A stretch of DNA of 64,000 bases, from NCBI GenBank assembly GCA_965248695.1, contig CBDFKD010000002.1, forward strand, positions 5,697,899-5,761,898, given 5' to 3'. Origin of the DNA: Acidobacteriota bacterium. Its GTDB lineage: Bacteria; Acidobacteriota; UBA890; WLXD01. Made by a program: the position numbers and the translations under genes. The notes under the pieces are model-generated. The model was not told the DNA's origin and searched no databases. It saw only the letters and a list, made by a program, of their open reading frames with translations. Positions 13,481-24,508 of the stretch are shown here, piece by piece. Numbering within the stretch: position 1 is the first letter of the stretch; each line of letters begins with the position of its first letter.

Positions 13481-14397
13481 TCCAGCATCTCGCGTCCCGT
13501 AAGTCGCAAGAACAGATCTTCCAACGTCGCGCTGCGCTGCAGCAGCCGGTCGTTGGGAATGGCATGCAGCGCCGCCCAATCGATCTCGCCTCGGGGGTAC
13601 ATGTAGACCGTGTCACCGACCTGTTCTCGATGACCCTCGCCCACCGCTTCGAGGCGCGCATCGAGCTGGCCGCGCTCGGCCGGCAAGGCGCGAATCTCGA
13701 TGCACTGCTCACCGATATGCTCGCGCACCAGCTGTCCTGGCTCGCCCACAGCCAGAAGGTTGCCGGCGTCCATTACCGCGATGCGATCGCACAGCTGCGC
13801 CGCCTCTTCCATGTAGTGCGTCGTAAGAAGCATCGTCACCCCGGCGGCTTTCAGGCTCCGCAGCCGGCTCCATACCCAATGGCGTGCTTGCGGATCGAGT
13901 CCCGTGGTCGGCTCATCGAGCACCAACAGCTCGGGCGAGTTGACCATTGCCCGAGCCAGCACGAGCCGCCGCCGCATGCCTCCAGAGAGCGTCGGGATCA
14001 GCGTCTTGGCGCGATCACGGAGCTGCACGAACTCGAGCAGCTCATCGATCCGACGCGACGCCTCACGCCGAGGTATGTCGAAATAGCGCGCGTACACCAT
14101 GAGGTTGTCCCGCACGGTCACGTCGGGGTCCAGACTGTCGTCCTGAGGTACGACCCCGAGCCGGGCCTTGATCGCTCGCGCGTTGACACGCACGTCATGC
14201 CCGAGGACGGTCAATTCCCCCGATGACGGCGGCGACACACACTGCACCATCCGCACGGTGGTGGTCTTGCCGGCGCCGTTGACTCCGAGGAAACCGAAGC
14301 ACTCGGCACGACGAACCACAAAGTCGATGCCGGCCACGGCTTCGACGTCGGCGAAACGCTTCACCAGTTGTTGCGCGGCGATGGCGTCGGCGCTCAT
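13477..14397 (-). CDS. ABC transporter ATP-binding protein (NodI-like)
   Basis: Walker A GVNGAGKTT, LSGGMRRR, LDEPTTGLDPQAR, TTHYMEEA. Confidence 0.92.
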   Translation of the reverse strand: MSADAIAAQQLVKRFADVEAVAGIDFVVRRAECFGFLGVNGAGKTTTVRMVQCVSPPSSGELTVLGHDVRVNARAIKARLGVVPQDDSLDPDVTVRDNLMVYARYFDIPRREASRRIDELLEFVQLRDRAKTLIPTLSGGMRRRLVLARAMVNSPELLVLDEPTTGLDPQARHWVWSRLRSLKAAGVTMLLTTHYMEEAAQLCDRIAVMDAGNLLAVGEPGQLVREHIGEQCIEIRALPAERGQLDARLEAVGEGHREQVGDTVYMYPRGEIDWAALHAIPNDRLLQRSATLEDLFLRLTGREMLE

Positions 14398-14476
14398 GTC
14401 TTCCCACCCGAAGCGCTTGATCTGATCGACTGCCGACGCGTGCGACAATACCGTGCCGATCGCGAGAGGAATTCGC

Positions 14477-15271
14477 ATGAAACCATACCTCGACCTGATG
14501 CGTACCGTCCTGGAATCGGGGGTGCCCACCGGCGACCGTACCGGCACCGGCACGCGCAGCATCTTCGGTCACCAGATGCGCTTCGACCTGCGCGCGGGCT
14601 TCCCGCTGATCACGACGAAGAAGGTGCATTTGAAGTCGATCGTCCACGAGCTGCTCTGGTTCCTGCAGGGCGAGTCCAACACCCGGTATCTGAGGGAGCA
14701 CGGCGTCTCCATCTGGGATGAGTGGGCCGACGCGGAGGGCGAGTTGGGGCCTGTTTACGGCGTGCAATGGCGCTCCTGGCCGACGGCCAGCGGCACGAGC
14801 GTCGACCAGGTTGCCTGGGTGGTGAACGAGATTCGAACCAACCCCACCTCGCGCCGGCTGGTGGTGTCGGCATGGAACGCAGGCGAGATTGACCGCATGG
14901 CCCTGCCACCGTGCCACCTGCTGTGTCAGTTCTACGCGCGCGAGGGGACGCTGTCTTGCCAGCTGTATCAGCGCAGTGCCGACATCTTTCTGGGGCTGCC
15001 GTTCAACATCGCTTCGTACGCTTTGCTGACGCAGATGGTGGCGCAAGTCACCGGTCTCGGTGTCGGCGATCTGGTCATCACGCTGGGGGACGCGCACCTG
15101 TATGCGAACCACCTGGAACAGGCGCGCGAGCAAATGGGCCGCGCTCCGCGACCCTTGCCGACCTTGCGACTGGCGACCCACGTCGACGACATCGACGACT
15201 TCCGGTTCGAGGACTTCGAGCTCGCCGGCTACGATCCGCATCCGCATATCAAGGCACCGGTAGCGGTGTGA
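14477..15271 (+). CDS. thyA: Thymidylate synthase
   Basis: [43 protein letters not shown]. Confidence 0.98.
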
Positions 15272-15795
15272 TCACGGAGGAAGATGCGGCGAGGCCCCTC
15301 GGCCGCTGCCGACTCAGCCTGATCGTCGCCGTGGCCGAGAACGGCACTATCGGGCGCGACGGCGCTCTCCCCTGGCACCTGCCAGACGATCTTAGGCGAT
15401 TCAAGGCGGTCACCCTCGGACACCCGATCATCATGGGTCGGCGGACATACGATTCGATCGGCCGGCCGCTGCCGGGCCGGCGAAGCATCGTGCTCAGCCG
15501 CGACCCCGACTATCGGGTCGACGGCGTTGAGGTCGCCGGATCGCTCGACGCGGCGTTGCGGGCCGCGGCGGATCAGGATGAGGTCTTCGTCATCGGCGGC
15601 GCCGCGCTCTTCGACGCAGCACTACCGATCGCCGATCGGATCTATCTGACTCGGGTGCACGCCACCGTCGAAGGAGACGTTGGGTTTCCACAGCTCGATG
15701 CAAAGCGCTGGCGGCTGATCTCCGATGAGCCTCACGCTGCGGATGCGGAGCACCGTTTCGCCTTCAGCTTCCGCATTTACGAGTTAGTGGCGTAA
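15268..15795 (+). CDS. folA: Dihydrofolate reductase (last codons supplied by the integrated element)
   Basis: [41 protein letters not shown]; GTG start overlaps the thyA stop. Confidence 0.96.
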
Positions 15796-15808
15796 GTGAT
15801 TGACTCAA

Positions 15809-17056
15809 TTAGACTTGCTCATTCATCGTCTTGGACTGGGTGCGCGGGGGGTGCGCGTTCCGCCTCAGAGGGTGCATTACCAGGGTCGTCGCCTGACCCT
15901 CGATCACGTGCGAATACGTCTCCAGTATCTCGGTGGTGGAGTGCCCCATTCGCCTTGCTACTTCTTGCGGGTGCGCCGTCTTGAGCGCGTGGGTTGCCCA
16001 CGCGTGACGGAATCCGTGGAGCCCAAAGTCGGGCACGCCTGCCTTGCGCACGAGCCGCTTCCAGACCGTATTGCGATAGCTGCTAGCTCCGACCGGGCCG
16101 CCGTGGCGATGCCTAAACACCCACTTTGACGGCGCCCTCCCACAACTAACCGCGTCACGGTCCTGCTTGGTGCGATGGTGGCGCAGCCGGACCGCGAGAT
16201 CCGGGGAGATCGGTAGCTTTTGGTAGTTACGGTTCTTGGTATGGCCGCGCACCTCGGAGCGCACGAACTGCCGCTCGATCAGAACGTGGTTGTCCTCGAA
16301 GTCCAGGTCGGCCCACTGTAGCCCGCACGTCTGGGAGATCCTGCACCCGGTCTCCATCAGGAACTCGAGCAGGCACCTGTCGCGGGTTCCCAGGTAATCG
16401 GCGGCCCTATCAATCCGCTCCAGTTGCCCGCGTGTCCACGCCTTGGGCGGCTTCTTGATCTTGCGGACCTTGGGGAGTTGCTTGCGGGTGACCGGACTCG
16501 ACTCAATCAGTTCATCCTCGGCCGCGGACGCCATGAGCGCCGACAGCACGCGGAAGACATTGCGGACCGTCTTTTGGCCCAGCGGCCTGCCGTAACCCTC
16601 GCCACGCTTGCCCTTGTCTCCACGCTTGCCGTACTTCGCCACGCCGGCGATCCACAACTTGACCGCTCGCTTGGAAATCTCGGTAATGGGCCTGTGTCCT
16701 AGCGCCGGCAAGATGTGACAGTCGAGCGTCGATCTGTAGATGGCTATTGTCGTCGGCGCCCAACCGTCGTCAGTGGAGTTGACCGCCTCCCACTCTTTGG
16801 CGTACTCGCCAACGGTCACGACCTTGGCAGGCAGGACGCTGTCGGCCGCCTGGCGCAGCGCCTCCCTGACGCTCCCGCCGTAGCCTGCAGCATCGGCCCT
16901 CGCCATCAACCGCGAAAACTCAACCGCCGCTGCCTCCGCCTCGGCCTTGCTGATGAAGCTGTACGAGGCTCGGTGCCCTTTGCGGTTGATGAACACCCAC
17001 CACTTGTCTGAGCCTTTCTTACGCCTGACCCGCACCCCCACGTTGGCCCCCTTCAC
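15809..17056 (-). CDS. Tyrosine recombinase / phage integrase
   Basis: N-terminal arm-binding region; TGCRISQ, HTKN, HGFRH, MGH and Tyr (ETYSH) catalytic set. Confidence 0.93.
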   Translation of the reverse strand: MKGANVGVRVRRKKGSDKWWVFINRKGHRASYSFISKAEAEAAAVEFSRLMARADAAGYGGSVREALRQAADSVLPAKVVTVGEYAKEWEAVNSTDDGWAPTTIAIYRSTLDCHILPALGHRPITEISKRAVKLWIAGVAKYGKRGDKGKRGEGYGRPLGQKTVRNVFRVLSALMASAAEDELIESSPVTRKQLPKVRKIKKPPKAWTRGQLERIDRAADYLGTRDRCLLEFLMETGCRISQTCGLQWADLDFEDNHVLIERQFVRSEVRGHTKNRNYQKLPISPDLAVRLRHHRTKQDRDAVSCGRAPSKWVFRHRHGGPVGASSYRNTVWKRLVRKAGVPDFGLHGFRHAWATHALKTAHPQEVARRMGHSTTEILETYSHVIEGQATTLVMHPLRRNAHPPRTQSKTMNEQV

Positions 17057-17313
17057 GACGCGTCTCTCATCAGGCGTTCAAGCACGAGAGCCCTACCGTC
17101 GATTCGCTCGACGTTGTTGTAGGGCTCCAGCCACGCCTGAAAGTCGCCCCATCGTATACGGACTTCTCGGGTACCTGGGATGCGTTTTGCGGGCAGCGGA
17201 TTGATCTCACGATTAATCCACCTCGTGACACTGTTGGGGCTGACGTTGGCGCGGTCGCACAGCTGCTTCTTCCGCAGCATCGTGTCCGGGTGCAGCGGCG
17301 CCGGCTCGGTCAC
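17053..17313 (-). CDS. Excisionase-like HTH protein
   Basis: 86 aa, LCDRANVSPNSVTRWI...LPAKRI...VRIRWGDFQAWLE, coupled to the integrase. Confidence 0.78.
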   Translation of the reverse strand: MTEPAPLHPDTMLRKKQLCDRANVSPNSVTRWINREINPLPAKRIPGTREVRIRWGDFQAWLEPYNNVERIDGRALVLERLMRDAS

Positions 17314-17483
17314 TTGGCCCGCCTCAATGCGTTGCGCGACGCTACGACCCTGAAGCCGTCCTCGAACTCAACGAGCGCGCTGTTCATCTTCCCGCGGGCC
17401 AGGACACGACAGCGCTGGCCATTCCGGTCTACCGGGCGCCACCAGCTCGGCAGCCAGTACCAGATGTACGGGTAGTCCCTCAC
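17310..17483 (-). CDS. Small phage-type hypothetical protein (57 aa, not in ORF track)
   Basis: MRDYPYIWYW...RNGQRCRVLARGKMNSALVEFEDGFRVVASRNALRRAK; stop overlaps the xis start (GTGA). Confidence 0.65.
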   Translation of the reverse strand: MRDYPYIWYWLPSWWRPVDRNGQRCRVLARGKMNSALVEFEDGFRVVASRNALRRAK

Positions 17484-17708
17484 TTGGCGGCACTCCGGAC
17501 ATCTTCAATAGAGAGCGCCCCGTCGAAGAAGACGGAGAGAGCTCCAGCCACCGCATCCGTGTTGAGTGGATCAACGTCTCCTAGCCATCCGCGGCGATGT
17601 CTCCAGCCACACCCCGTCCAGGTGGGCTATCTGGGTGCTGGGCGTGGGACCAGCCGGCGACTCTCTTGCGTTCGCGGGGTGCCAGGGCCTTCTACTCGGA
17701 CTGTTGCC

Positions 17709-18158
17709 CTACGGCTCGTGCTTCGAGTGCGGGGCCTGCATTCGAACCCATCGCCGATACTGACTGGGCAGCATCCCGGTTTCGGCTTGGAACGCGTTGA
17801 GAAATGAGCGGTACGAATGTCGGCGATAGCCCGCCTCCGACGCGATCTCCTTCATCAGCTGCTGGGGCCGTGACTCCATCAGTTCGCGCGCTTTGTCGAT
17901 CCGCAAACGGCGGATGTCCTTGCCGATCGTTGTCCTGTAGGCGGCACGATAGTGGCGGCATAGTAGACTTCGGGAGATTCGGAGCTGCGCTGCGATGGTC
18001 CCGACCCCGCATCCATCTGCTGCTGCGAAGTGTCGTTTGATCTGCGCCTGTGCCAGCTCTGCGACGCCAATCTTGGCGGCGTCAGGCGCTTTCCTAGATG
18101 GCAGCGTCAGGTCGTGGCGCCTTTTCGTGCCGGGTATCGCCGCGTCTGATTCTACCAT
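17709..18158 (-). CDS. AraC-family HTH regulator lacking a sensor domain
   Basis: IAAQLRISRSLL...IRRLRIDKARELM...EIASEAGY...FLNAFQAETGMLPSQYR. Confidence 0.82.
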   Translation of the reverse strand: MVESDAAIPGTKRRHDLTLPSRKAPDAAKIGVAELAQAQIKRHFAAADGCGVGTIAAQLRISRSLLCRHYRAAYRTTIGKDIRRLRIDKARELMESRPQQLMKEIASEAGYRRHSYRSFLNAFQAETGMLPSQYRRWVRMQAPHSKHEP

Positions 18159-18162
18159 TGCC

Positions 18163-18486
18163 TCAGCCGCTGCCGGGCCAGCCCATCGTCTCGCAGAAGC
18201 CCGGCTTTGATTGCACGGTGAGCACCACCAGAACGCTGCACTCGCCGTTGTGCCAGTAATAGCCGCAGACGACGATCGGATCGCCATCGGCGGCCACTAT
18301 TTCGAAAACTTCCCGCATCCCGATCGCGCCAGGCACCAGATGCTCATGATCCCCGCAGTGATTCGTGAGGCAGTGAGTGACACGAACGTTGGATTCGCTG
18401 GTGCCGGCTTGAACGAACCCCTCAACACAGGCGAGCGCGCTCTCGGCGGTTCGCCGTGGGATTGGTACGTCATCGGGGTGGAGCAT
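18163..18486 (-). CDS. Unrecognised small protein, paralog A
   Basis: Aligns end to end with the protein starting at 19717; the minus-strand translation is the better conserved one. Confidence 0.72.
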   Translation of the reverse strand: MLHPDDVPIPRRTAESALACVEGFVQAGTSESNVRVTHCLTNHCGDHEHLVPGAIGMREVFEIVAADGDPIVVCGYYWHNGECSVLVVLTVQSKPGFCETMGWPGSG

Positions 18487-18802
18487 GCTGGCCTCTCACA
18501 CTCTTGAGCTTTCCAGGCCTTCGGCTTCGGTGCGGGCGGCCTAGCGCCTTCGCGATGAGACGGGCGAGCTCGCCGTCCCGATCCGCCTCGAGGGCCTGCC
18601 GGAACGCACGTCGTGCGCCATACCGATAGCCTGCCGCCGCCGCCGGTACAGCAACGACGATGGCAGTGAGCAAGCTGACGGTCACCATGACCAGGCCGAT
18701 CGTCTGGGGCCGGTTACCCGGCGTGTGAACGACCAGGGCCAAGGCCCCGACCGTGAAGATGTACAACCCCGCCGCTGCGACGGCCCAACGCTGCTTTCGC
18801 AC
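18470..18802 (-). CDS. Small 2-TM membrane protein
   Basis: Two hydrophobic segments and a basic tail; co-oriented with neighbours. Confidence 0.55.
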   Translation of the reverse strand: MRKQRWAVAAAGLYIFTVGALALVVHTPGNRPQTIGLVMVTVSLLTAIVVAVPAAAAGYRYGARRAFRQALEADRDGELARLIAKALGRPHRSRRPGKLKSVRGQHAPPR

Positions 18803-18840
18803 TCCGGTTCCCTCTTGCCAGCTCAGGCGTATCCCATGGC

Positions 18841-19311
18841 TCAGAGATCGACTTCTTTAAGCGCCTCGCGAGTGTCGGTCAACATGTCTAACAAAGTTGC
18901 AGATTCGGCTGCTCCAAGGACCTGCCGAATCTCCTGCTGAGCTCCTCTCCAATGCGCATGCGCTGCAGCGGCAACGGCGCTGCCTTTTTCGGTCAGTGAC
19001 ACGATCCTCTGCCGGCGGTCAGCGCCGGGCTCGATGACCAGCCAACCGCGCTCTACGAGCGGCCGCAGGATGCGGCCAAGGCTTGTGCGTTCGAGATCCA
19101 ACTGCGCAGCCAACGCACCAATAGCCATTGGTCCTAGGTACTGCACCATCGTCAACACCGGAAGCTGGGTCGAGTTCAATCCGACGGAACGCAATCGACG
19201 GTCATAGTGCCGCGTGACGCGGCGTGTGAGCTTGCGCAGCTGAAGGCAGATGCATGTGAGGGCACGTTCTTCGGCACCCACAGCAGCTGGCACGCTTGTG
19301 TCGTTCTGCAT
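18841..19311 (-). CDS. MarR-family regulator (CxC subtype)
   Basis: CICLQLRKLTRRVTRHYD, LERTSLGRILRPL, DRRQRIVSLTEKG. Confidence 0.9.
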   Translation of the reverse strand: MQNDTSVPAAVGAEERALTCICLQLRKLTRRVTRHYDRRLRSVGLNSTQLPVLTMVQYLGPMAIGALAAQLDLERTSLGRILRPLVERGWLVIEPGADRRQRIVSLTEKGSAVAAAAHAHWRGAQQEIRQVLGAAESATLLDMLTDTREALKEVDL

Positions 19312-19717
19312 GAAAAAGAGTGTATATACCCCTATTGAGCTGTGCAACCTCGTGTCTCTGCTGCCGCAACACTGAGCCGCTCTTACCCTCCCGCGGCTCC
19401 ACGCCGGCCCAGCCCATCATTTCGATGAAACCCCGCTTGGATTGGACCGTGAGAACAACCAGCACCGTGCACGCGCCGTTGTCCCAGTAGTAGCCGCACA
19501 CGACTACAACGATGTTGTCGTCGACCGACTTGTCGAGGCCTTCTCGGACCCCAAGCGCGCCGGGCACCAAACCCCGCAGATTCCCCTCGAGCTCCGCTAC
19601 GGCGTGGGTGACGCAATCGTTGTGGATGCTCTCATAGCGCTGACTGACGCCCTCGACACATGCCAACTGGCTTGCATCGGTACGCGGCGGAATCGGAGAG
19701 GGTTTGGAATCCGACAT
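19202..19717 (-). CDS. Unrecognised small protein, paralog B (3' end runs into the marR 5' region)
   Basis: PIPPRTDASQLACVEG...VVCGYYWDNGACTVLVVLTVQSKRGFIEMMGW matches paralog A; sequence after about 19390 is non-homologous read-through. Confidence 0.65.
   Translation of the reverse strand: MSDSKPSPIPPRTDASQLACVEGVSQRYESIHNDCVTHAVAELEGNLRGLVPGALGVREGLDKSVDDNIVVVVCGYYWDNGACTVLVVLTVQSKRGFIEMMGWAGVEPREGKSGSVLRQQRHEVAQLNRGIYTLFHAERHKRASCCGCRRTCPHMHLPSAAQAHTPRHAAL
19320..19330. promoter_or_regulatory. Palindrome GTATATAC, candidate MarR autoregulatory operator
   Basis: Perfect 8-bp palindrome at 19322-19329 in an AT-rich patch about 10 bp upstream of the marR ATG. Confidence 0.5.
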
Positions 19718-19845
19718 CACCTGCTCAGAGAGCGCCGCGCCGAGGTCGCTCAAATCATCCTGGTGGCCCGAAAGCTGAGTCGATCCCCTAAGCGCTTCGG
19801 CCCAGGGAGACGAACAGCAGGTCCTAGCCGACCGCGGTACGGCCG

Positions 19846-20209
19846 TCATGCGACCCGTCCCAGGCCGAGCAACTCCTCGAGCCGCCACACCACTTCGTCC
19901 CGGCTGATCTCCGGATGGTTCAGGTAGGTCGCCGCGTAGTAGCCGGCCACGTAGGGCTTGAACCACTCGGCGTGCTCGAAGATGTACGGCCGCTCCATGA
20001 CCACGCGGCCCTGAACGTTGAGGTGGCAGCGCTGGCAGAGCGCGACAAGGTTCCACCAGGAGCAGTTGGCCTTGTCCATGTCTAGGTGGTGGACGGTCAG
20101 CGTGTAACCGGACTCCACGTCGTGCGGGTGATCGCAGCGGGCAGCACCATCCGGAAGCGTTCTTCACGGCTGCGGCGATCTGGTGCCAGTCGTGCGGGTA
20201 GTCGTTCAC
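19846..20209 (-). pseudogene. Phage HNH endonuclease, frameshifted near 20140
   Basis: YPHDWHQIAAAVK..SGWCC in one frame; RCDHPH...LTVHHLD.DKANC...NLVALCQRCH in another. Confidence 0.8.
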
Positions 20210-20547
20210 ATCACCCTCTCGCTACCACCGAGCCCTTCGATCGCCTCGAGGACATCCGACCGGCTCGGCGGTAGAACACGGTCAGCGGCGAGGCGGGCGG
20301 CGACGGCCACGAACATAGGGTCGTGGCCTTGAACACACGCCGTTGTCGGGCGACAGCCGCAGACTGGGCACTCCCAAGACACGTCGTATCCCATCCGCTT
20401 CGCCAACTGCTGCACGGTCTCGTAGCTCGAAGCCCGTCCGCCCGGCGCTCCTTGCCAGATGCATTCGAACTCGTCCTCGCCCACGAGCCGCCAGGCGCTG
20501 GCGGTCGGGTACCGGCCGACGATGATGCAGCGCGGCTTGTCGCCCAT
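20206..20547 (-). CDS. Hypothetical protein with CPVC motif
   Basis: Start and stop overlap the neighbouring genes in the element operon. Confidence 0.5.
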   Translation of the reverse strand: MGDKPRCIIVGRYPTASAWRLVGEDEFECIWQGAPGGRASSYETVQQLAKRMGYDVSWECPVCGCRPTTACVQGHDPMFVAVAARLAADRVLPPSRSDVLEAIEGLGGSERVM

Positions 20548-20630
20548 CAGGCTGCGGGCTCCACAACCCAGGGCGCGAGCTTCCACTTGCCGCCGTGGTA
20601 CCGCATGATGGGGCGCGCCGGCGCGGTCAT
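20547..20630 (-). pseudogene. N-terminal remnant of a Dam/D12-class DNA adenine methyltransferase
   Basis: MTAPARPIMRYHGGKWKLAPWVV then stop; matches the (R)YxGGK start motif of D12 MTases. Confidence 0.7.
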
Positions 20631-20782
20631 CCCCAACCCCAGCCGGACGGATACCCACACCGATGGCACAGATTGCGAAAGACGATCGCCTCGATGCGTC
20701 CGGAGCCGCAGCGTGGGCAGCGGCCGAGCAGCGTCAGCGCGCCACGGCGCACCCGGATCCAGACCTCAGCCAGGCGCCTCAT
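20627..20782 (-). CDS. Small Zn-ribbon protein
   Basis: CPRC...CHRC; stop overlaps the MTase remnant start (ATGA). Confidence 0.5.
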   Translation of the reverse strand: MRRLAEVWIRVRRGALTLLGRCPRCGSGRIEAIVFRNLCHRCGYPSGWGWG

Positions 20783-20962
20783 GCGGCCCGCACCCAGCGT
20801 GAACGCCAGGGTGCGCATAGGGTGCGTTTTGAGCACCCGGCGAGAGGCCTGCCCCCCGAAACCACTGTCGCTAAAGGGGTTGGAAATGCCCCGATAAATC
20901 TTCCGCGTCTACGAGCCCACGGCATCCGCTTCCTAGCCGCGCTCCTGCTGCGGCCCAGGCGG

Positions 20963-23900
20963 TCAGTCGCGATCTAGCGGCAAGTTGACGCGACGAGCTG
21001 GCCGCGTGTTGTACTCCCGCTGCCATTCCTGATGCAAAGGCGAGTCCGGGAAGCTCTCATCCAGACCATACGGATAGCTGCTCATGGCATGAAACGGGAG
21101 CGGCTCCACACGATCACCATGCACGGTGTTCGGATCGCCGTCTTTTACCCAGCCGTTGAGGTACACGAGCCAGTCGCGGCGCCAACCGTCTGGTATCGGC
21201 GGCAGCGTGTCGACGAAGCGGAGCACGACCTCATCGCCGGCAGCAATGATCACATAGCGGTCATCCGCCTCCTGGACGAGCTCGTCGACGGCACCGTAGC
21301 GAGTGTAGCCACCGCGGTGCTGATCCCAGTTCGAGCTCGAGCTGACGGTCGCGTAGTCGAATGTCTCGTAGCCGTCGGCGGTGCGCTGCAGCGTCGAGAA
21401 CCCGCGCCAGCGGATCTCGGCCTCGGCGGGCTCCAGGACGTGCAACTGCACCTCGGGTATCGCTCCGGTCATCGGATCGTGCAGCATCACTTCGCCTCCG
21501 AGCGGCACCTCCCACTCTCCCTTCCAGAGCCCGGTGGGGCGTACCCCCTGCGGATGGCGGCCGCCGACGGTATAGAAGGCGGCGTCCCAGTACAGTCGCA
21601 TCGTGGTGGCGACGCGGACGCGCGGATCAGCCGGGTCGATCACATCGGTCACGTCGACGCTGATCGTCGAGTTCTTGGCGTTTGGCAGCCCGATATCCTC
21701 GATCGCCGTACGCCATCCGCCCCGGCCGTCGGGAACCTCGATGGCGACGGGCGCGAACGCGACTCGCGGGTCGTCATCGACCACCAGGTTGATACTGGCG
21801 GTCGCCCAGTACACCCAGCCGGTAAGAAACAGGCGCACGGTGCCGCCCGTTCCAGCGTCGGCGAGCGCCAGCTCCAGGGCGTGGGGAGTGGCGAGCCCCT
21901 CGTACAGTCCGGCGTCGAACGGCGCTGACCAGACGCCGTCGACCGCCGCTAGGGCGGCGCTCCAATCGCGCCCATCCTGATCGATTGCGCTCACCGCTCG
22001 GCGCTCCTCGACCACGAACAGCCGCAGCTCGGGATGGGGCGGCGGCACGAATTTCTCGTCCGGGATCACCGTCGAGCGCTCGGGATGATCCACCGCCACC
22101 AAGCGCGCCGCATCGAGGTATCCGGCCTCGCGGAGCTCCTCGCTCAGCCGCAGCTCCAGTACACCGTCCCGCGGCTTCAGCGCGTCGCCGTCGATGGGAA
22201 CGTACTCGTCGAAATCAGCCGGGTGAATTACTCCGTTGGCGAGCGGCATTCCCAGCGGCGCCACCCCGAGCACCTCGTTGATGAAGCGCCAAGAGGTCCC
22301 GTCCCAGGCGTACAGCAACGGGCACGAGCCCTCGAGGCGTTCCACCTCGGTGACCGGTCCCAGCGTTGCCCGCGCCGGCACGTCGGTCTCGTTCTGCAAG
22401 ATGCCGTTGGGCCAGGTGATCCTCACCACCTCAGCCACCGCGAGATCGCCCAGGCCGACATGCACCGCGGCACGCCGCAATCGGCGGCGCTGGTAGAGCC
22501 CCCCGGCCTTGACTTCTACCGATGCCCCGATGCCGCGAGCGTTGTTCTTGATGCCCGCGAGGCGCACGCTCAGCCAGCTGCCCAGCGGCGCTGGCTGCTC
22601 GTACCAGACGGCGCCGGTGGCCGAGGTCGTGAGAATGTCGACGGCGCCATCGTCGTTACCATCTATCGCGTCGACGAGCTCGGCGCCGTGGCTCTCGAGC
22701 ACCGGCCCGGCGGTGAACTTCCACTGCCCGAGGTTGAGCAGCGTGTGCAGCGCGCCGTCGGCATCGACGACGAGATCGAGCCAGCCGTCGTTGTTCAGAT
22801 CTGCAGCCACCGCACGCCGAACCGGGGTGGCGAAATCGAACTTCCGATCACCGAAGGTACCGTCGCCGTCGTTGCGCAGCCCCTGGAGCCCGTTGCCACC
22901 AGCGAGCACCAGGTCGACGGCACCGTCGTTGTCGAAGTCCTCGGCGATCGCGTCGACCGTCGCCGCATCTCCTGCAGCGCCGACCGCGGCGCCGATCTCC
23001 GCAAAGCTGCCACCGCGCAGGTTGGTGTACAGCGTCGTCGGGGCGCCATCGGCGACGACATAGAAATCGATGTCGCTGTCGTCGTCGAAGTCGGCCCAGG
23101 TGACGGCAATGGCCGGCGCCTGTGCCTCTAACCCGGCCGCGACGGTAGCGTCGGCGAACTCATCCCCTCCATGATTGAGGATCAGTCGCAAACCCGGGCC
23201 GTCTCCGCGTGTAGCGATCAGCAGATCAAGGTCGCCATCATGGTCGGCGTCTACCCAGGTGACCTCGGTGGCATCAGGCGTCGACGGTAGCCCGGTAGCC
23301 GCCACCGGCGCGAAGCGTGCTGTCGGTCCGTCCGCCAGGTTGCGGAACAGTCGCCCAGTCGCCGCCACCACGTAGAGGTCCGGGCGGCCATCGCGATCGG
23401 CGTCGCCGAGCGCCGCCGGGCCCGCCCCACGACCGCCGAGTGAAGGACTGCCGACCTGCACCAATTCCACGCGCTCGGCTCCGAGATCGCCAGCAAGCAA
23501 CCGCGAATCGGGAGCCGGCGGCAGCAGCACCTCGCGGCGCGTGAACGTCAGCTCTCCCGCCGTATTCGCCGACGGCAATGTGAAGTTGGTCCGCGGCACC
23601 TCGATACGCTTGTAGCGGCCCGCCTCCAGTGCTGCCGGCGCCCGTTGTGCCTGCGAAAGTCGACGCTGGTACGTCTGGTAGCTCTCCAGAAGCGGCCGTG
23701 CCGCTTCGCGATCACCGCCACGCTGCAACAGGAAAGCGGCACGGTAGGTGGCCGACACGAAGTGCTGCAGGCCGATATCGAACCCCATGCCCATCACGAC
23801 GCCATAGTGCTCGTGCGCCGACTCCACGTCTTGCAGCGCTTCGTAGGTCGCCCCGAGGTTGTAGCGGATCGCAGGATCGGCAGGATCGAGATCGACGGAC

Positions 23901-24268
23901 CGATCGAAAGCTGCCTGCGCTTCTTCCATGCGGCCCCGCTTGGCATGTAACAGACCCCGCAGATACGGTGCGCCGGCGTGATCCGGGTCGAGCCGCTCGG
24001 TCGTGTCGAGGGCGGCGAACACATTGGCGTCGTCGTCCGGGGTTTCTGCGACCTCGTACAGGGCCAGCGCCAGGTTCATCCAGTCCGGTGCGGTCGCTCC
24101 AGACTCAGCCACCACGGCGCCGAACGCCGCCACCGCAGCAGTATTCTGCTTTTCCTCATACAGAGCCTGGCCGCGGTTTCGCAGCGATTGCTGCGCAACG
24201 TCCTGGGAAAGGCCGGGCCCCACCAGCGGGCCACAGACGAAAGCGGCAGCCGCCACGACGATCGGCAT
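20963..24268 (-). CDS. Secreted TPR + FG-GAP + ASPIC/UnbV (CRTAC1-like) protein
   Basis: N-terminal TPRs, repeated D.D.DG..DL motifs, NARGIGASVEV...HVGLG...ITWPNG, GSCPLLYAWDG; start uncertain. Confidence 0.85.
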   Translation of the reverse strand: MPIVVAAAAFVCGPLVGPGLSQDVAQQSLRNRGQALYEEKQNTAAVAAFGAVVAESGATAPDWMNLALALYEVAETPDDDANVFAALDTTERLDPDHAGAPYLRGLLHAKRGRMEEAQAAFDRSVDLDPADPAIRYNLGATYEALQDVESAHEHYGVVMGMGFDIGLQHFVSATYRAAFLLQRGGDREAARPLLESYQTYQRRLSQAQRAPAALEAGRYKRIEVPRTNFTLPSANTAGELTFTRREVLLPPAPDSRLLAGDLGAERVELVQVGSPSLGGRGAGPAALGDADRDGRPDLYVVAATGRLFRNLADGPTARFAPVAATGLPSTPDATEVTWVDADHDGDLDLLIATRGDGPGLRLILNHGGDEFADATVAAGLEAQAPAIAVTWADFDDDSDIDFYVVADGAPTTLYTNLRGGSFAEIGAAVGAAGDAATVDAIAEDFDNDGAVDLVLAGGNGLQGLRNDGDGTFGDRKFDFATPVRRAVAADLNNDGWLDLVVDADGALHTLLNLGQWKFTAGPVLESHGAELVDAIDGNDDGAVDILTTSATGAVWYEQPAPLGSWLSVRLAGIKNNARGIGASVEVKAGGLYQRRRLRRAAVHVGLGDLAVAEVVRITWPNGILQNETDVPARATLGPVTEVERLEGSCPLLYAWDGTSWRFINEVLGVAPLGMPLANGVIHPADFDEYVPIDGDALKPRDGVLELRLSEELREAGYLDAARLVAVDHPERSTVIPDEKFVPPPHPELRLFVVEERRAVSAIDQDGRDWSAALAAVDGVWSAPFDAGLYEGLATPHALELALADAGTGGTVRLFLTGWVYWATASINLVVDDDPRVAFAPVAIEVPDGRGGWRTAIEDIGLPNAKNSTISVDVTDVIDPADPRVRVATTMRLYWDAAFYTVGGRHPQGVRPTGLWKGEWEVPLGGEVMLHDPMTGAIPEVQLHVLEPAEAEIRWRGFSTLQRTADGYETFDYATVSSSSNWDQHRGGYTRYGAVDELVQEADDRYVIIAAGDEVVLRFVDTLPPIPDGWRRDWLVYLNGWVKDGDPNTVHGDRVEPLPFHAMSSYPYGLDESFPDSPLHQEWQREYNTRPARRVNLPLDRD

Positions 24269-24508
24269 CGGGGCACGCCGCCAGCTGCTACGAAGGCTTG
24301 GTTGCGGACGCTCACACGACACGGTTTCTCTCCATCCCCCTCTCGTCCGGCCTATGTCTGTGCAGAGTTTAGTGCGTCCCCGGACTAGCCGCTGGTGCGG
24401 ACACCGCCGACCTCGCCCGGTAGTGGAAGAGATCCGATGCCGTCGGGGCACTCGTTTTGCTGGGGCTGCCGGCGTTATAAATAGGTACGCTCAAAAGTGG
24501 GGGAAGCC

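Follow-up and report, generated by a model that had tools for sequence, protein, structure and literature searches.

A duplicated orphan gene beside AraC- and MarR-family regulators on a decaying integrase island in folA of an Acidobacteriota genome

A stretch of 64,000 nt from an Acidobacteriota bacterium (GenBank assembly GCA_965248695.1, contig CBDFKD010000002.1, positions 5,697,899 to 5,761,898 of the forward strand; hereafter the window) was analyzed, and coordinates below are positions in this window unless marked as lying outside it. The window carries a compact block of genes on one strand in the order B-MarR-2TM-A-AraC, in which A and B are two copies of an orphan gene, MarR and AraC encode DNA-binding regulators of these families, and 2TM is an open reading frame (ORF) and putative gene for a protein with two hydrophobic, possibly membrane-spanning (2-TM) segments (Table 1). 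A and B are old, diverged copies of a real protein-coding gene under purifying selection, and the block lies, by comparison with related genomes, inside a partly decayed integrase/excisionase island of about 5.1 kb in the 3' end of folA. A role for the two proteins as partners of the adjoining regulators is proposed and weighed below.

A and B are identical at 55 of 98 residues aligned without gaps (56%; BLASTP, E 2e-33). They are the only two copies in their own genome, and the sole pair found in an all-against-all BLASTP of the island proteins. Their MAFFT alignment holds 56 invariant columns, C20, H38, C74 and C83 among them. An invariant block, VVCGYYWxNGxCxVLVVLTVQSKxGFxExMGWxG, and the motifs PIPxRT, LACVEG, VTH and LVPGA are common to both, and an HCxxxHCxxHxH cluster is present in A only. 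An earlier reading of the bare DNA made without database searches (the sequence-only reading) had quoted the shared motifs with three conserved Cys and one conserved His, and had described A as ending 4 nt before an AraC gene for a DNA-binding domain only, B as running into a MarR gene with a CxC motif, and a 2-TM protein as lying between the two modules. This layout was borne out in full, as were the coordinates given for A (18163-18486) and for the start of B (19717); the end of B, placed at about 19390, had to be moved to about 19403, where its core ends. At the DNA level the likeness extends over 169 nt at 75% identity (18172-18338 versus 19403-19569), does not reach beyond the ORFs and ends with the last codon common to A and B.

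The reading of A is the longest that its frame allows, with a Shine-Dalgarno-like GAGAGG 5 nt upstream of the ATG. The B core has no stop codon at its end, and its frame remains open to 19202, overlapping the MarR gene by 109 nt. The resulting tail of 66 codons is non-coding in composition (GC by codon position 0.63/0.54/0.52, versus 0.65/0.43/0.76 in the core) and raises the isoelectric point (pI) of full-length B to 8.15. The public gene call for B (P0002) is 215 aa long, with a start further upstream at 19849. Independent short-read contigs (four runs of one sample from one study, probably the source material, with no RNA run listed for the locus) reproduce 15600-19972 and 19960-21100 with no gaps and, one variant excepted, with identical sequence, so the missing stop of B is not an assembly error. 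The lone variant, A>G at 19155 inside the MarR gene, occurs in contigs of one run of the four (X4). No hydrophobic segment was found in A or B by the Kyte-Doolittle method with 19-residue windows. AlphaFold2 run on the two-sequence alignments gave unusable models (mean predicted local distance difference test score, pLDDT, 38.4 for A and 40.9 for B), in which two features only, a hairpin (about 70-92) and a short helix (97-100), were common to both.

Table 1. Features of the A/B block and of the surrounding island (window coordinates; scores as found, with Pfam cut-offs where given)
Feature	Position	Strand	Description
Copy A, orphan protein	18163-18486	minus	107 aa, pI 4.95, 6 Cys, 6 His
Copy B	19202-19717	minus	ATG at 19717; 171-aa open frame; core 19403-19717 = 105 aa, pI 4.77
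AraC/XylS-family regulator	17709-18158	minus	149 aa, pI 10.6; HTH_18 51.7 bits (cut-off 33.6), residues 55-136
MarR-family regulator	18841-19311	minus	156 aa from ATG 19311, pI 9.6; alternative TTG start 19347
2-TM ORF	18470-18802	minus	110 aa, pI 11.95; two hydrophobic segments (Kyte-Doolittle, 19-residue windows), basic tail
Left att-like core CTTCCGCATTTACGAG	15768-15783	.	in last folA codons; likeness to three congeners breaks here
Tyrosine integrase	15809-17056	minus	415 aa; Phage_integrase 96.1 bits (cut-off 27.1), SAM-like N-terminal domains
Excisionase-like helix-turn-helix protein	17053-17313	minus	86 aa; HTH_17 E 1.3e-4, below cut-off; phrog_66 E 6.7e-6
57-aa ORF	17310-17483	minus	no family match (Pfam, PHROGs, NCBIfam, PADLOC)
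HNH endonuclease gene	19846-20209	minus	phrog_1571 E 1.6e-7; apparent frameshift near 20140
ORF	20206-20658	minus	150 aa, or 113 aa from ATG 20547; no family match (Pfam, PHROGs, NCBIfam, PADLOC)
Short ORF	20547-20669	minus	40 aa; no family match
Zinc-ribbon-like CxxC...CxxC ORF	20627-20836	minus	69 aa; zinc-ribbon matches below cut-offs
Right att-like core CTTCCGCGTCTACGAG	20900-20915	.	14/16 bases as in left core; displaced original folA tail and stop follow

The ratio of nonsynonymous to synonymous substitutions per site (dN/dS) between A and B, calculated by the Nei-Gojobori method, is 0.43 overall at a dS of about 0.93, and falls from 0.62 in codons 1-66 to 0.20 in codons 67-105. The annotated frame has the lowest dN/dS of the six, the other frames giving 0.68-1.33. 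Differences are most frequent at third codon positions (46 of 105, versus 36 at first and 33 at second positions). The corresponding ratio of uncorrected proportions (pN/pS) comes to 0.58 (bootstrap interval 0.42-0.82). When neutrality was simulated by placing the same 115 changes randomly, 2000 of 32580 replicates were free of stops; their median pN/pS was 0.90, and 4 of the 2000 were as low as the observed 0.58. The dN/dS check suggested in the sequence-only reading was in this way answered in favor of purifying selection, for the time since duplication and not for the present day.

Relatives of A and B were sought at several levels. No Pfam family matched either protein at E <= 0.1, NCBIfam and PADLOC gave no match to either, and PHROGs gave a single match, to A only, at E 0.02. 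A joint A and B profile found no PDB chain at E <= 10, and the ESM Atlas yielded no usable match for A or B. In a word-indexed search of 5.8 billion clusters A returned itself only. An exhaustive profile search of 1.84 billion representatives, standing for approximately 15 billion proteins, had four matches at E <= 0.001, two of them A and the 215-aa call of B; the other two (P0003, 781 aa, E 4.5e-5; P0004, 1285 aa, E 9.3e-5) are long repeat proteins matched over 30-residue stretches and were rejected. Motif scans gave 29 pattern matches in genomes, 215 in metagenomes and 31 in viral contigs, none of which was confirmed by tblastn, and A had no tblastn match in 50,697 phage and 72,556 plasmid records. 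A six-frame profile search of 10 other genomes of the same family found nothing. Of 400 other genomes from the phylum searched in the same way, G379 alone gave a match (E 0.0027 per genome); it was rejected, because it falls in an Arg-rich frame antisense to a real gene and a sample of 400 genomes should yield about one match of this sort by chance. As far as public data reach, the A/B family is restricted to this genome and is new in sequence. No match to a known phage family was found, and the sequence-only reading, which could not assign a family, is matched on this point by the profile, protein, genome, phage and plasmid searches.

The gene downstream of A encodes a member of the AraC/XylS family, HTH_18 scoring above the Pfam gathering score as the sole domain match. 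Its architecture is the DNA-binding-domain-only one of the MarA/SoxS/Rob type (149 aa, with no N-terminal ligand-binding or dimerisation domain), and in alignments its likeness to relatives, which are ORFs of 140-180 aa, begins at about residue 18-31. A gap of 4 nt separates the A stop codon (18163-18165) from the AraC ATG at 18158, a junction that suggests translational coupling and near-equal production of both proteins. The MarR protein was assigned by three models, MarR_2 (30.4 bits, cut-off 27), MarR (30.0, cut-off 24.6) and HTH_27 (33.9, cut-off 22.2), and has a CIC motif in its N-terminal helix; 91 nt separate the end of the B core from its ATG. The 2-TM ORF overlaps the start of A by 17 nt and is treated as a putative gene, for which the search of 5.8 billion clusters returned no homolog, its own record included.

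Possible control sites were noted around the MarR gene. A near-perfect palindrome at 18901-18932 (15-nt arms, 13 of 15 paired, 2-nt gap) falls within the 3' end of this gene, some 100 nt before the 2-TM ORF begins, and could be an operator or internal regulatory site; by a rough estimate, about 0.2 such sites are expected by chance per 7 kb. An AT-rich patch, TATATACACTCTTTTTC, occupies 19312-19347 directly ahead of the MarR ATG in a region of 63% GC, with TTGCAC further upstream. This patch falls within the B tail and could be a promoter from which MarR would be transcribed almost without a leader. A consensus promoter scan called no sigma-70-like site, this patch included, and terminator-like sites were uninformative.

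All genes between the two att-like (attachment-site-like) cores are on the minus strand. From the left core onward the island supplies a new folA tail and stop, and the stretch that follows the right core aligns with the intact folA 3' ends of three congeners (G003, G004 and G005). The site is empty in all three, where thyA and folA are followed within a few dozen bases by a convergent large FG-GAP/TPR gene, located at 20963-24451 in the window. When twelve window proteins were compared with the congener folA sites, the products of thyA, folA and the FG-GAP/TPR gene alone matched; the nine island proteins queried had no match in the 14-kb folA-site loci of these congeners. With a tyrosine integrase at one end, flanking direct repeats and an empty site in relatives, the island has the features of an integrative mobile element, in agreement with the sequence-only reading, which had placed the block on one. 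Its target is the 3' end of folA and not a tRNA gene. The excisionase-like protein matches a PHROGs family annotated as 'excisionase and transcriptional regulator' (phrog_66) and is 44% identical to the product of a gene adjoining a related integrase in G003. That integrase is 44% identical to the island enzyme in one search (40% by tblastn), and the neighbors of this pair are ordinary metabolic genes, which give no hint on cargo. Elsewhere in the genome of the window (G000:C2:4613362-4613787, outside the window) lies a fragment of a second integrase that matches residues 273-410 of the island enzyme at 54% identity, which hints at a further remnant left by a related element.

Several features of the island indicate decay. 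The HNH gene looks frameshifted near 20140, the N-terminal 30 codons from GTG 20209 being in one frame and the HNH motif in another, and the short-read contigs show no gap or difference there. The last 164 nt of this gene are 79% identical to a 1.3-1.8 kb repeat with three copies in the genome at >=99% identity (on G000:C2 near 3846126-3846281, 2319475-2319630 and 709270-709425, all outside the window). In the repeat copies, a C-terminal HNH remnant is followed through an ATGA overlap by an N4/N6 DNA methylase gene with an SPPY motif; in the island, the likeness ends exactly at the HNH stop and B comes next instead of the methylase. The island is for this reason taken as a mosaic remnant and not an intact phage. 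The 40-aa ORF begins with YHGGKWK, which presumably recalls the N-terminus of D12-class adenine methylases and had no database match. The first codons of the HNH N-terminal piece (MNDYPHDW; 20119-20209) and of the 57-aa ORF (MRDYPYIW; 17457-17483) share 27 nt at 78% identity.

A search of 400 other genomes from the phylum brought up homologs of the island AraC in 15 (E <= 1e-8). Identity is 58-61% in three congeners and 43-46% in two further genera of the family, and a fourth congener has a frameshifted copy; at six of nine loci the homologs lie between a gene for a sigma-54-type AAA+ activator and an ACT-domain gene. The frameshifted ortholog, on the chromosome of G005 (L025, G005:C8:1256144-1256471), is split over two frames in what looks like a frameshift. 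A DNA-binding-domain-only AraC protein, 43-61% identical and at a conserved chromosomal site in six related genomes, is by this comparison an ordinary chromosomal gene of the lineage. In the genome of the window the corresponding locus (G000:C2:539738-540712, outside the window) carries a deletion that fuses residues 1 to about 290 of the activator in frame to the last 43 AraC residues, with loss of the activator helix-turn-helix (HTH) and most of AraC; relatives keep two separate genes. With the chromosomal copy deleted, the island AraC is left as the sole intact member of its subfamily in the genome. Matches to the MarR protein occur in 42 of 401 genomes (including G156, on which no claim rests) and in none of the four congeners. 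Among the 400 other genomes the best relative belongs to a different family of the order; it shares 47% identity with the island MarR and retains the CIC motif. As far as these comparisons go, the MarR relatives are generic only.

The reading tentatively put forward here is that A and B are small acidic partners, each modulating the basic regulator encoded next to it. Both would be acidic cytoplasmic proteins (pI about 4.8-5.0), each made together with a strongly basic DNA-binding protein (AraC, pI 10.6; MarR, pI 9.6) and each binding it as an anti-regulator or co-regulator, by which the sensor-less, MarA/SoxS-like AraC would be made responsive to a signal. C20, H38, C74 and C83 would be a candidate metal or redox site and the cluster specific to A a second candidate, and MarR may repress the block with AraC as its output, by analogy with marRAB. 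The partner role is favored by the position of both copies directly 5' of a gene for a DNA-binding protein, with 4 nt between A and AraC, by the contrast in pI between the cores (4.95 and 4.77) and the regulators, by the AraC protein having no sensing domain and by the four conserved Cys and His residues. Regulation through small proteins or protein contacts has precedents in the DUF397, BldB and ExsA systems described below. The 'split sensor or anti-regulator' role offered in the sequence-only reading has its basis in the same gene order, 4-nt gap, acidic pI and conserved Cys and His residues only. A as a split-off N-terminal domain of AraC was rejected, because the AraC subfamily is DNA-binding-domain only in relatives too and because the frames of A and AraC differ. 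The 'interchangeable transcription factors' of that reading would be represented by two cases in one locus.

A number of observations weigh against a partner role, which is drawn from sequence and gene context. The association with regulators has no statistical weight, because it consists of two cases in one locus. The N-terminal two thirds of A and B are weakly constrained (dN/dS 0.62), the His/Cys cluster of A has no conserved counterpart in B, and B is possibly impaired, because it has no stop of its own and a 66-residue tail that brings its pI up to 8.15. The island itself is decaying. None of the nine AraC homolog loci (about 3.3 kb each, approximately 1.5 kb either way) contains a match to A, B, the 2-TM ORF or MarR, and the locus of the best MarR homolog has no A-like neighbor; an AraC of the island type needs no A-like partner, because its chromosomal homologs do without one.

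This last point also suits a near rival, somewhat doubtful in itself, in which A and B are cargo: a payload unrelated to regulator binding (exclusion, stress or metal handling), with MarR and AraC controlling the operons they share with it, a frequent arrangement among autoregulated regulators. Adjacency of this kind arises most commonly where a regulator and its target gene are co-transcribed. A and B occupy the segment of the island in which morons or cargo would be expected, and behind the related HNH remnant, in its three other copies in the genome, the place of B is taken by a DNA methylase gene. Against this rival, a regulator gene comes directly after each copy, with HTH proteins encoded by only about 3 of 11 island ORFs, the 4-nt junction suggests coupled translation, and no match to defence, phage or metal-protein families was found in Pfam, PHROGs, NCBIfam or PADLOC. 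It is unlikely that the copies, functional in an ancestral element, are purposeless now as decaying remnants, at least in the case of B with its lost stop codon. The erosion of the island, with an apparent HNH frameshift, a 40-aa methylase-like stub and 5.1 kb in total, would fit such remnants; its defects are not assembly errors, since independent short-read contigs agree; the B frame runs 66 codons beyond the core with non-coding composition, and no relative of A or B is present in any database searched. Both cores are nevertheless intact after about 0.9 synonymous changes per site, 6% of neutral replicates stay open, and the observed pN/pS is below nearly all of those.

Addiction modules of a toxin-antitoxin-like kind, in which each small protein and its HTH neighbor would neutralise one another and keep the island stable, are very unlikely. 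A, B, AraC and MarR match no toxin or antitoxin family in Pfam, NCBIfam or PADLOC, and type II membership was not found; the acidic A and B contrast with type II toxins, which are usually basic; antitoxins do not usually have AraC or MarR folds, and relatives carry the AraC subfamily as an ordinary gene of the chromosome. The two-gene layout, the tiny gap and the location on a mobile element are what such modules would show, and paralogous small proteins with different DNA-binding partners resemble type II mix-and-match. XRE-DUF397 pairs predicted to be such modules did not behave so, according to the part of the report available (PMC10364602). It is scarcely credible that A and B are not coding in this frame and mark instead a gene on the other strand or a DNA or RNA element. 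An antisense frame is open across both copies, and protein language-model 'recognition' scores are low (1779 and 1538), but the dN/dS of that antisense frame is 0.86 against the lowest value, 0.43, in the sense frame, third codon positions differ most, antisense translations of A and B have no Pfam match better than E 0.12, and an Rfam scan of 14000-22000 gave no match at E <= 1.

Should the partner role hold, with A and B binding and modulating DNA-binding proteins of two unrelated classes, sensor-less regulators would gain input from a separate, exchangeable small protein, and a new fold would be added to the short list of anti-regulators. A bolder form, in which the A/B protein has a previously unseen fold and acts as a portable Cys/His metal- or redox-sensing anti-regulator for unrelated DNA-binding proteins, a modular plug-in sensor spread by mobile elements and sampled once, is a speculative and decidedly unlikely extension. 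No generalisation is drawn as yet, because the family is known from one genome. The narrower results are solid: a duplicated orphan gene under selection, an island that targets folA, and an island AraC that is the sole intact member of its subfamily.

Known systems offer partial parallels. A marRAB-type cassette comprises the repressor MarR, the activator MarA, which consists of the AraC DNA-binding domain only, and the small MarB, in the order of the name. The island block resembles this system in having a MarR gene and a gene for a DNA-binding-domain-only AraC protein on one strand in a compact arrangement with small accessory ORFs. marRAB is the operon that encodes MarA (PMC6900184, in the part available), and the genes here are not orthologs of it, the SoxS model (cut-off 174) scoring 22.7 bits and the E. 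coli MarR model (cut-off 240) 31.6 bits. The island block also differs in its two extra paralogous ORFs, which have no hydrophobic segment, in its 2-TM ORF and in being carried on an integrase island.

Small-protein paralogs of unknown biochemistry next to HTH regulators are also a feature of the DUF397 and BldB systems. As far as the available portions of these reports go, the small protein of XRE-DUF397 pairs acts in regulation and not as part of a toxin-antitoxin system (PMC10364602), and BldB paralogs adjoin WhiJ paralogs in the WhiJ/BldB/AbaA clusters of Streptomyces (PMC10294661, PMC6262351). A and B do not belong to DUF397, since neither has a Pfam match at E <= 0.1; the DUF397 gene is downstream of its XRE regulator, whereas A and B are upstream of AraC and MarR, and only two copies are present here, in one locus. 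Control by protein contact, the mechanism that would apply to A by analogy, is described for ExsA, an AraC-type activator controlled in this way and not by a small ligand, in the accessible parts of two accounts (PMC7303211, PMC4552939). ExsA has a 'regulatory domain' in the latter account (PMC4552939) and the island AraC has none; A matches no Pfam family, and so has no sequence relation to ExsD, the anti-activator that acts on ExsA. The AppY protein of E. coli K-12 is an AraC-like regulator from a defective prophage that can act on the host (PMC10057817), and like the island AraC its gene is an AraC-family gene on a degraded integrated element. The part of that account available describes no paired small protein, and the AraC gene carried by the folA island is the sole intact member of its subfamily in this genome.

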